A stretch of 30,610 nt of DNA, taken from NCBI GenBank assembly GCA_021801615.1, contig JAJYXS010000099.1:1-30610 (forward strand), in the 5' to 3' direction. The notes beneath the pieces were generated by a model. That model made no database searches and was not told the DNA's origin. It worked only from the letters and a program-made list of their open reading frames with translations. Origin of the DNA: Actinomycetes bacterium. Its GTDB lineage: Bacteria; Actinomycetota; Acidimicrobiia; Acidimicrobiales; RAAP-2. Positions 24,149-26,894 of the stretch are shown in pieces. Every line of letters begins with the position of its first letter. The stretch's first letter is position 1. Both the position numbers and the translations under genes were made by a program.

Positions 24149-25962
24149 GGCGCTGGCAGCTCCTGGGCGATGCCTGCCGCACCGTCACCGTGGCCAGGCG
24201 GTGCCCCGCCGTTGCCGCCGTAGGGGCCATGGCCGTTCGGGCCAGGTCCTGCCCCACCGCCGTGGCCGAGGCGGATCGCGGGCGCATCCGGGTGGTTGTA
24301 GTCCCACGTCGGCCGTTCCGAGCGGATCTGGGGAAGGTGCGTGTAGTTGTGGTGAGGGGGCGGCGACGTCGTGAACCACTCGAGCGTGTGGCCGTCCCAG
24401 GGGTTGTCGCCGGCGGGGACCGGGTAGCGCCAGGACACCCAGACGTTCACCAGCATGACCACGAAGGAGATGGCGATCATGAAGGCGCCGATCGTCGACG
24501 CCACGTTCCACGACTGCCAGCCGAGCCCGGCCGGGTAGCTCGCCACGCGGCGGGGCATGCCGCGCAGCCCGAGGACGTACATCGGCATGAACGTCACCCA
24601 GAAGCCCACGAACAGCAGCCAGAAGTGGACCTTGCCGAGCCGGTCGTTCAGCATCCGTCCGAACATCTTCGGGTACCAGTAGTAGAAGCCGGCGAAGCCC
24701 GCGAACACCGCGGTGCCGAACAGCACCTGGTGGAAGTGTGCGACGACGAAATAGGTTGTGTGCACGAAGAAATCGATTGGCGGTGAGGCGAGCATCACGC
24801 CCGTGACGCCACCCATCAAGAAGGCGAAGAGGAACCCGATCGACATCAGCATGGGCGTCGTGTAGACGATCTCACCCCTCCACATCGTGCCGATCCAGTT
24901 GAAGAACTTGATGCCGGTCGGCACGGCGATGAGGAGGCTCATGAGCGAGAAGAACGGCAGGAGCACCGTGCCGGTGGTGAACATGTGGTGGGCCCACACG
25001 CCGGTCGACAGGGCGGCGATGGCCATCGTCGCGAAGACCATCCCCTTGTAGCCGAAGACCGGCTTGCGCGAGAAGACCGGGAGGATCTCGGTCGCGATGC
25101 CGAAGAAGGGGAGGGCGAGGATGTAGACCTCCGGGTGGCCGAAGAACCAGAACAGGTTCTGCCAGAGCACGGCGGAGCCGCACGCGTGCAGGTCCAGCGC
25201 GCCCGTGACCGTATGGCATCCGGTGACCGCGTAGATCTTCGTCCCGAAGTGACGGTCGCAGAACAGCATGACCAACGCGGCGGTGAGCACCGGGAACGCG
25301 ATGAGGATGAGGATGCCCGTCACCATCATGTTCCAGGTGAAGATCGGCATCCGGAACATCGTCATGCCCGGGGCGCGCAGGTAGAAGATCGTCGAGACGA
25401 GGTTCACCGCGGTGAAGATCGCGGAGAACCCGGTCAGCACCAGTGCCATGATCCACAGGTCCTGGCCCATCCCCGGGGTGTAGGTCGACGTCGACAGCGG
25501 CGCGTAGGCGACCCAGCCGAAGTCCGCGGCGCCTCCGGCGACCAGAAAGCCCATCAGCATCATGATCGAGCCGCCGAGGTAGAGCCAGTAGCTGAGCGCG
25601 TTCAGCCTCGGGAACGCCATGTCCGGGGCGCCGATCTGGAGCGGGACGATGTAGTTCGCAAGGCCGCCGAAGGCGAAGGGCCCGGCGAACAGGTACAGCA
25701 TGATGCTGCCGTGCATCGTGAACAGCTCGTTGTACTGCTGGAACGAGATGAAGGTGCCGTGAGGTGTGACGAGCTGCACCCGGATGCCCATGGCGAGCAG
25801 GCCTGCGATGTAGAAGAGCACGATCGAGGTGATCATGTAGCTGAGCCCGATCACCTTGTGGTCGGTCGTCGTGATCCACTTCATGAGGCCGCTCGGGCCG
25901 TGCTCCTCGTGGACGGGGGCGTACTCGCCGCCGAGGACCTGCGGGACGATGACGTCGGTCAC
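24145..25962 (-). CDS. ctaD: cytochrome c oxidase subunit I (A1-type)
   Basis: GTG at 25962 overlaps the ctaC stop. [60 protein letters not shown]. Confidence 0.97.
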
Positions 25963-26894
25963 GAGACTGTGCCCCCTGTCGATGCGCTGAGCGTTGCGGA
26001 ACCCCGGGAGCCTCCAAGTGCAGGGCTGTGCGTCGCCGCCGCGCTCCCGAGCTCGTGCTTGCGGGCTGTCGCGATGGGGGTGCTCGGTGTCGACGAGCGG
26101 TGGGTGCGCAGCCAGGCGGTGAACTGCGCGGGCTTCACGACCCTCACCCGGAAACGCATCAAGGAGTGGTACAGGCCGCAGAAATTCGTGCACTGGCCTC
26201 GGAAGGTGCCCAGCGCGTGGAGGTTCAAGGTGAACTTGTTCGTGACGCCGGGTTGCGCGTACCGGCTGAAGTCGAACGCCGGGACGTAGAAGCCGTGGAC
26301 GACGTCCGCGGACCGCAGGTAGATGCGGACGGTCTGGCCCTGTGGGAGGACCATCTCGGGCTCCTGGAGCTCCACGCCCATCACTGTCACGTCCTGGTGT
26401 GTGTAGTGGAAGCGCCACCCCCACTGGAAGGCGGTCACGGTCACCGACCACTTGGGGGCGGGCAGCGCGTCGACGTTGTTCTCGGTCACGTAGGTGAACC
26501 CGAACAGGACGAGCACGATGGCGATCGGGAGCGCGGTGTAGACGATCTCGAGAAAGGTGTGGTACTGGGTCTGGCGGGGGATCGCGTCCGAGCGCCGACG
26601 GTACCGCAGGGCGGACCAGGCGATGAGCGCGAAGACGACGACGAAGATCACGAGCCCGGTGATGAAGAACCCTTGCCAGAGCTTGAGGGAGTCGTGTCCC
26701 TGGCTCGTGATCGGCTTGGTCGCGCCGAACGTGGGAAGGTTGCACCCCGCGAGGAGCAGCCCGCCGGCCAGCGTCACGACCGGCGCATGGAGCCGGGAGC
26801 GGCGCGAGCCCAGCTGGCGGCGCGGCCCTCGGGCGGCCGCGGCCACGTCGGGGCCAGGTGTGGTGGAGAGGTTGCCGGACGGCGACGGATCCAC
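25959..26894 (-). CDS. ctaC: cytochrome c oxidase subunit II (CuA; probable lipoprotein)
   Basis: LLLAG-C lipobox (Cys 26742-26744), two TM helices, [27 protein letters not shown]. Start uncertain: GTG at 26894 or 26846. Confidence 0.93.

Follow-up and report, generated by a model that had tools for sequence, protein, structure and literature searches.

The question raised by the ctaC and ctaD genes of an Acidimicrobiales bacterium is whether a cytochrome c oxidase of the aa3 type may keep its redox centres and proton channels and give up the site at which a Mg or Mn ion is usually held. The genes lie on a 30,610-nucleotide stretch of DNA (contig JAJYXS010000099.1 of assembly GCA_021801615.1, assigned to the RAAP-2 lineage of Acidimicrobiales), and this whole stretch is referred to here as the window. 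Its CtaC, CtaD and CtaF proteins form, as judged from their sequences, an A1-type, CuA-bearing aa3 oxidase for cytochrome c, of the bcc-aa3 kind known from actinobacteria. Our analysis indicates that the Mg/Mn site of this enzyme has probably been dismantled in several steps, leaving a pocket like that of the ba3 oxidases, from which we infer that it holds no metal. Such a site is usual in A1-type oxidases and does not define the family. Four positions carry the argument.

24757..24762, minus strand: His401-Thr402 of CtaD; the ligand His is retained, and Thr402 (ACA, 24757-24759) stands at the Mg/Mn-ligand Asp
26184..26186, minus strand: Asn209 of CtaC (AAT) at the Mg/Mn-ligand Glu, opposite the Glu of mycobacterial C-T-E-M-C
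26259..26261, minus strand: Tyr184 of CtaC at the second-shell Asp of subunit II (bovine D173, twelve residues past the CuA His); mycobacterial and other actinobacterial enzymes have K-R-D where S-R-Y is found here
25171..25173, minus strand: Ala264 of CtaD at bovine P228, in the proline cluster over the water cluster; Ala in 14 of 14 genus members and Pro in 16 of 16 other family members

The CtaD protein reads D397-F-F-V-H401-T402-T-Y-F-V-V-A-H409-F-H411-Q-V, with the codons CAC ACA ACC at His401, Thr402 and the next Thr. In the alignment to solved enzymes, Thr402 takes the position of bovine D369, Rhodobacter sphaeroides D412 and Corynebacterium glutamicum D391, opposite the Asp of mycobacterial H-V-T-D-S-Y-F. 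The CtaC protein reads C207-T-N209-F-C211-G-L-Y-H215-S-L-M218, and its Asn209 corresponds to bovine E198, R. sphaeroides E254 and C. glutamicum E287. Thus, of the subunit I His-Asp pair and the subunit II CuA-loop Glu that build the site, only the His (His401) is kept, with Thr402 in place of the Asp and Asn209 in place of the Glu. An earlier note on this DNA had reported the Asp to Thr and Glu to Asn changes, and both proved exact to the base by translation and alignment. It had concluded that the Mg site was dropped; both ligand carboxylates are indeed gone, together with a third one that it had not mentioned (at Tyr184), while the absence of the metal itself is reasoned from the ba3 enzyme.

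These substitutions are not errors of sequencing or assembly. The Thr codon ACA was shared by all 14 of the other genus genomes searched in which this region of ctaD is covered, against GAC elsewhere in the family, and the region of the Asn codon at 26184-26186 is covered by Logan contigs from four runs of four studies with no listed difference. From the family state, GAC to ACA needs three base changes and CAG to AAT two, so the view of the earlier note that multiple substitutions make an error unlikely was borne out. One genus row (L011, genome G006) is unpublished, and nothing rests on it alone. As a side observation, the ACA codon is invariant in all 15 genomes of the genus (among them those of the window, L003-L014 and L022) despite pairwise synonymous divergence (dS) of 0.4-0.7, and it stands out against a third-position GC content of about 0.9 in many reading frames of the window. 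The change from GAC ACC to ACA ACC can be written as three substitutions, or as a one-nucleotide deletion plus a one-nucleotide insertion within the CACAC run.

The remainder of the enzyme is that of an apparently working oxidase, whose normal activity would be expected from its conserved residues. The genes and catalytic motifs concerned are the following.

24145..25962, minus strand: ctaD, cytochrome c oxidase subunit I of A1 type, 605 amino acids (PF00115, E 7e-156, 519.8 bits; TIGR02891, 676.6 against a cutoff of 670.75)
25959..26972, minus strand: ctaC, cytochrome c oxidase subunit II (PF00116, PF02790; TIGR02866, 151.2 against a cutoff of 147.7)
25123..25140, minus strand: G-H-P-E-V-Y of CtaD, with a CuB His, the D-channel Glu (A1 signature) and the cross-link Tyr, by translation and alignment
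26157..26192, minus strand: CuA loop C-T-N-F-C-G-L-Y-H-S-L-M of CtaC, with its ligands (two Cys, His and Met) kept, aligning with mycobacterial C-T-E-M-C-G-T-F-H-A-M-M

The closest solved relatives of CtaD are mycobacterial and corynebacterial (E about 1e-209), with about 58-60% identity to the solved mycobacterial CtaD. In an alignment of 72 sequences, H84, H276, E278, Y280, H325, H326, K352, H409, H411, R471 and R472 of CtaD fall in invariant columns, and D114, the D-channel Asp, is nearly invariant. These include the six His ligands of heme a (two), heme a3 (one) and CuB (three), namely H84, H411, H409, H276, H325 and H326, the cross-link Tyr Y280, the GHPEVY Glu E278 and the K-channel Lys K352. 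All CuA ligands of CtaC (H172, C207, C211, H215 and M218) are present as well. The earlier note had described the metal and heme ligands and the D- and K-channel residues as intact and the enzyme as an A1-type CuA oxidase, and both descriptions agree with what was found. Membership of the B type was rejected since subunit I of the ba3 oxidase matches only residues 267-501 of CtaD, at E about 1e-10 compared with 1e-209 for the A type, and the GHPEVY Glu is present. A quinol oxidase (bo3 or aa3-600) was rejected as well, as all CuA ligands are present and the QoxB, CyoB, QoxA and CyoA models scored far under their cutoffs. The ratio of nonsynonymous to synonymous substitution rates (dN/dS) against genus relatives was 0.10-0.15 for ctaD and 0.29-0.40 for ctaC, which shows both genes to be under purifying selection.

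Compared with the canonical A1 aa3 oxidases of bovine mitochondria, R. sphaeroides and Paracoccus denitrificans, the enzyme keeps GHPEVY, the CuA centre and the equivalents of D364, H368, R438 and R439, whereas D369, E198 of subunit II and the second-shell D173 of subunit II are all replaced. The oxidases of solved bcc-aa3 supercomplexes (Mycobacterium smegmatis 6ADQ and 7RH5, M. tuberculosis 8HCR, C. glutamicum 7Q21 and 7QHM) share its gene set, ligands and D and K channels, but they have the CtaD Asp, the CtaC Glu and the Asp of K-R-D where Thr, Asn and Tyr are found here. They also differ in having Ser or Thr at the canonical His, with a His two residues upstream, while the canonical His is present in our enzyme. 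In C. glutamicum, Asp391 of CtaD and Glu287 of CtaC are part of a water-filled cavity that binds Mn2+, and Glu287 has been proposed as a proton exit (PMC8795186). The C. glutamicum enzyme has been modelled with Mn2+ (PMC8795186) or with Mg2+ (bioRxiv 2021.06.16.448340) at this site.

About 200 cta loci were gathered from the genomes of relatives, a species-level genome collection and metagenomes of the Joint Genome Institute (JGI). The scan of JGI metagenome contigs gave no loci of the genus (the best had 83% identity) and yielded subunit pairs at the family level only. On the CtaD tree, the changes are nested. A large Acidimicrobiales clade shares the CtaC Glu to Gln change and Asp to Tyr or Phe at the second shell, together with Ser to Gly beside a CuA His and the loss of the Tyr of HFHYV. 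Within these Glu-less Acidimicrobiales, a subclade has 12-21 extra residues, bracketed by Cys, in the P-side loop that joins helices V and VI of CtaD. The genus lies inside the insertion subclade (clade support 100) and has the CtaD Asp to Thr change fixed. Among genomes, the change from Gln (CAG) to Asn (AAT) in CtaC is limited to the source species, the 12 other ctaC copies recovered from the genus having Gln (CAG). CtaD has 10 genus-specific changes at columns conserved in the family, and the two radical ones are D402T and P264A. Bovine D369, P228, E198 of subunit II and D173 of subunit II are residues of the water cluster (PMC12901375, Table 1). D369 and P228 are among those listed as forming or sealing this Mg-containing cluster, and both radical changes fall within it.

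Both subunits were available for 131 orthologue loci. Asp and Glu were both kept in 39 of them, Glu was lost with Asp kept in 61, both were lost in 31, and the loss of Asp with Glu kept was seen in none. In 54 of the 131 loci, the Glu to Gln and Asp to Tyr changes of CtaC occur with the CtaD His-Asp intact. The 31 double losses consist of 12 loci of the genus, 18 of a Nanopelagicaceae type and one further metagenome-assembled genome (MAG) with H-N and C-N-N-I-C. Among the best 120 CtaC relatives in a set of 5.8 billion proteins, the position of the Glu was Gln in 112, Asn in seven and Glu in one, and the Asn-type proteins seen elsewhere include P0062, P0069, P0070, P0086, P0104 and P0114. Of the 120 CtaD proteins with the highest similarity in residues 370-430, 109 had H-D, 10 had H-T and one had H-N; as this sample was picked by similarity of the motif region, its placement on the tree counts and its frequencies do not. 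On a FastTree tree of 103 of these proteins and the CtaD of the window, Asp to Thr had at least four origins within the Glu-less clade, namely the genus and at least three other lineages; the other Thr-type proteins include P0124, P0126 and P0136.

It follows that the substitutions are not a single paired event and are stepwise. The earlier note had presented the changes in CtaD and CtaC as a pair, and strict pairing was rejected because the loss of Glu is far older and the CtaC Gln stands alone in 61 of the 131 loci, with Asn as a late Gln to Asn step in the source species. Its idea of co-occurrence holds in one direction, as the Glu is lost independently but the Asp was never lost where the Glu was kept (0 of 131). 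Because Asp was lost only where Glu was lost (31 loci against 0), the loss of the subunit I Asp in orthologues appears to be contingent on the prior loss of the subunit II Glu, a pattern that comes from few independent events. The recurrent Asp to Thr change on a Glu-less background fits an Asp that had grown useless or unfavourable.

Two further features, one in each subunit, are the following.

25180..25218, minus strand: 13-residue Cys-bracketed, His/Asp-rich insertion C249...C261 at the tip of the CtaD P-side loop between helices V and VI
26271..26273, minus strand: Asp180 of CtaC (eight residues past the CuA His), a genus-specific Asn to Asp gain; Asp in 11, Glu in one and Ile in one of the genus, Asn in 16 of 16 family members

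In the bovine enzyme, the loop that holds the insertion here provides the P222/P228/Q232 wall of the Mg-water cluster (residues from PMC12901375). None of the solved mycobacterial CtaD sequences in the alignment has the insertion, and mycobacterial and corynebacterial aa3 oxidases lack it. Its variants in related genera are 12-21 residues long, with only the two Cys constant and the His after the first Cys mostly so. The form in the genus is C-H...G..D.[HN]-A-C, with the Asp invariant. Given that the length varies, that Asn can replace the second His and that nothing but the two Cys is constant, we read the insertion as a putative outer-face loop stapled by a disulfide, and not as a fixed metal site. 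A single-chain AlphaFold2 (AF2) model of CtaD had a mean predicted local distance difference test score (pLDDT) of 82.8, with low confidence at the insertion (249-261). A second genus-specific charge swap in the CuA domain was noted at CtaC residue 194 (26229-26231, Asp to Thr), fourteen residues past Asp180.

The loss of the Mg/Mn site is the most likely reading of these data, because the Thermus thermophilus ba3 oxidase (1EHK, 3S8F), the only structurally known oxidase with Asn or Gln at both positions, has no Mg2+. In the ba3 enzyme, the neutral amides N377 and Q151 stand at the positions of the ligand carboxylates, the His (H376) is kept as it is here, and the water cluster is present without Mg2+ (PMC12901375, Table 1 and text; PMC3141039). 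The authors of the former paper concluded that Mg2+ is not required for the formation of the water cluster (PMC12901375). The literature searched gave no description of natural A-type oxidases without Mg ligands. The H411A and D412A mutants engineered in R. sphaeroides reportedly lose Mn/Mg and stay active, which fits a dispensable site.

The CtaD tree gives the following course of events. In an ancestor of the large Acidimicrobiales clade, Gln took the place of the CtaC ligand Glu, and Tyr or Phe that of the second-shell Asp, after which the Cys-bracketed loop was inserted into the P-side V-VI loop of CtaD. In the genus, the last carboxylate, the CtaD Asp, was then replaced by Thr and the neighbouring lid Pro by Ala, and finally the CtaC Gln became Asn in the source species. 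We propose that a pocket of His, Thr, Asn and Tyr without a carboxylate would no longer hold a divalent cation and would instead contain an uncharged, hydrogen-bonded water cluster over the heme a3 propionates, as in Thermus ba3. At the CuA site, copper is ligated by the backbone carbonyl of whichever residue takes the Glu position, so CuA would be unaffected. Water and pumped protons would still leave via the Arg pair and Asp397, both retained, and via the heme propionates. The whole Gln/Tyr clade probably has a metal-free pocket likewise.

Several points weigh against a metal-free pocket. His401 and Asp397 are retained, and Mg2+ can be coordinated by the oxygens of amides and hydroxyls, which leaves room for weak or altered binding. 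The genus gained CtaC Asp180 and the Asp and His of the loop, which could in principle rebuild a site. The single-chain AF2 model is uninformative on the subunit interface and of low confidence in the insertion, and the genome is 58.5% complete, so a second, canonical oxidase may be present. The analogy with ba3 spans different oxidase families, as the Thermus enzyme is of the B family and matches CtaD at E about 1e-10 and the CuA domain at 5e-5. At the second-shell position, ba3 has the acidic E126 whereas Tyr is found here. The ba3 oxidase is not known to have a D channel.

Concerning the cause of the losses, the earlier note had proposed an adaptation to acidic external pH. In such a case, an outward-open carboxylate site for cations would be protonated or mis-metallated in acidic, metal-rich water and hence be removed. 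The distribution of the window DNA agrees with this in part: it was detected in mine-drainage runs, sediment metagenome runs and one run labelled only as "metagenome" at 0.54-0.72 of the sampled words, and in a mine-tailings run at 0.26. No RNA dataset was listed among the runs that contain the stretch, a result without bearing on expression. Relatives in the family also come from peat (palsa) and soil MAGs. However, the Glu to Gln and Asp to Tyr changes are common to a large number of the clade's MAGs from soil, peat and lakes, and the most complete loss is that of the Nanopelagicaceae-type loci, which are without all three carboxylates. Judged by the refuting condition set in the earlier note, such loss is common in lineages not tied to acid. 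Other Acidimicrobiales oxidases (L125-L131) keep Asp, Glu and Asp intact, and a second oxidase in genomes of the same genus retains both the Glu and the second-shell Asp of subunit II. We consider acid adaptation unlikely; it is neither necessary nor demonstrated, and the mine-drainage habitat is itself a reasonable guess. A habitat low in divalent cations would be an equally hypothetical driver. Since the stepwise changes also happened in other actinobacterial lineages, the Mg/Mn ion site looks dispensable rather than lost through an acid-specific adaptation.

The gains in the loop and at Asp180 raise another idea, that the site was rebuilt and continues to bind a divalent metal (Mg, Mn, Zn or Cu) close to its former place through His401 together with the Asp and His of the insertion, CtaC Asp180, or both. 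The invariant Asp of the insertion in the genus, the location of the insertion in the loop that walls the water cluster (PMC12901375) and the occurrence of CtaC N180D on the same branch as CtaD D402T speak for it. We nevertheless regard a rebuilt site as quite improbable, as several Thr-type sequences have Asn for the second His of the insertion, one genus member has Ile for Asp180, the Thr-type CtaD P0126 has no insertion at all, and P0243 has the genus-type insertion and the Ala but retains the Asp; an insertion of 12-21 residues with only two constant Cys is better explained by a disulfide staple. A bolder form of the idea, to which we give very little weight, is that the Cys-bracketed His/Asp loop, perhaps with Asp180 and His401, makes a new P-side metal site or a disulfide-latched lid over the water and proton exit; if true, this would be a type of cap not described for any heme-copper oxidase. 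Decay of the operon under relaxed selection, with another oxidase doing the work, can be set aside almost entirely. Several genus members do have one or two further A-family oxidase operons and ctaC evolves faster than ctaD, but a ctaD dN/dS of 0.10-0.15, the conservation of every redox ligand and proton-channel residue, the intact and translationally coupled frames of all 15 genus genomes from which the gene was recovered, and the fact that this ctaD is the only one found in the source genome largely refute it. Loss of the metal site in a working enzyme is thus the reading that we prefer.

The earlier note had also listed a Tyr to Gln change in the HFHYV motif alongside the Mg-site substitutions.

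24724..24738, minus strand: H-F-H-Q-V of CtaD, both heme axial His kept, with Gln for the usual Tyr, by translation and family comparison

The Gln is found family-wide, sister clades have Ser, Asn or Glu at this position, and the change dates to roughly the branch on which Glu became Gln in CtaC. The Tyr position lies across the heme ligands from the Mg site. As the change is family-wide and no link to the Mg site was found, it was set aside as a part of the site.

The same residues have been lost outside Acidimicrobiales. In the Nanopelagicaceae-type loci, CtaD reads F-A-V-S-A-S-Y-F, with Ser-Ala and no His, CtaC reads C-N-I-L-C, and Gln occupies the second-shell position. Of these loci (L057, L060, L080, L086, L090, L108 and several of L179-L210), five come from named Nanopelagicaceae genomes and 13 from metagenome contigs. 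The aa3 oxidases of the Nanopelagicaceae (freshwater acI actinobacteria) resemble our enzyme in being A1-type, CuA-bearing and without the three carboxylates, but they keep HFHYV, have no loop insertion and belong to the class Actinomycetes. The loss of all three carboxylates in the Nanopelagicaceae type is an independent one. The literature searched had no description of a Nanopelagicaceae-type loss of the carboxylates and the His.

The neighbouring genes complete the picture of the respiratory chain.

23711..24148, minus strand: ctaF, actinobacterial oxidase subunit IV (PF12270, E 4.9e-22)
17823..22364, plus strand: ctaE-qcrC-qcrA-qcrB, oxidase subunit III and the bcc complex (PF00510; PF13442 and PF00034; PF19297 and PF00355; PF13631 and PF00033)

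The GTG start of ctaD overlaps the ctaC stop (GTGA), and the ctaF start overlaps the ctaD stop. The cta operon on the minus strand and ctaE-qcrC-qcrA-qcrB on the plus strand are convergent, with a GAF-ANTAR gene in between. CtaF, CtaE and QcrCAB, with a di-heme cytochrome c, QcrA_N plus Rieske domains and cytochrome b, are all encoded nearby, and this is the usual gene set of the actinobacterial bcc-aa3 supercomplex. The NCBIfam actinobacterial models were top-scoring yet below their cutoffs (NF050116 for CtaD, 771.4 against 880; NF050117 for CtaC, 227 against 250). The N-terminus of CtaC is of the lipoprotein type (L-A-G-C) and is followed by the CuA cupredoxin domain; its start codon is uncertain, the coordinates given being those of the longest open reading frame, and the gene call in the public database is 337 amino acids long (P0004). 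The C-terminal tail of CtaD (residues about 560-605, 24148-24285) is rich in Gly, His and Pro, with a length kept across the genus and a pLDDT below 50. Several relatives have a ctaD match that is divided into two adjoining or overlapping parts (about residues 1-335 and 320-600), as at G020:C21:35068-36830, G035:C5:190288-191870, G027:C5:93760-95347 and G010:C7:9191-10775, and these may be either frameshifts or naturally split subunit I genes.

The source genome is a MAG of 2.30 Mb (2,296,248 bases) in 226 contigs, from an uncultured bacterium, with a GC content of 0.706. The relatives of the cta genes that carry names are soil and peat MAGs of uncultured Acidimicrobiales and Acidimicrobiaceae. 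A second ctaD copy was not found in the source genome, itself 58.5% complete. Relatives in the genus and family hold one or two further A-family oxidase operons (L112, L114-L118, L120, L123; L113, L119, L122). In several genus members, such a paralogous oxidase has H-G in subunit I and C-x-E-L-C with the Glu and the second-shell Asp in subunit II, and the second type has GHPVVY, without the D-channel Glu, and H-G. Neither type was found in the source genome at its given completeness.

The role of the Mg/Mn ion in A-type oxidases is still argued, whether structural, in water exit or in proton exit and storage, and work on it has relied mainly on engineered mutants and on contrasts with the distantly related ba3 oxidase. 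The finding leaves the general picture of oxidase function unchanged, and its relevance is mainly for oxidase specialists. For them, natural carboxylate-free A1 enzymes under purifying selection, present here, across a large soil and peat clade of Acidimicrobiales and in Nanopelagicaceae, would be ready tests of whether the ion is needed for activity, proton pumping or CuA stability. That the loss of the Glu seems always to precede that of the Asp offers a testable order of dispensability. The stepwise route to a ba3-like and probably Mg-free pocket has parallels elsewhere in Actinomycetota.

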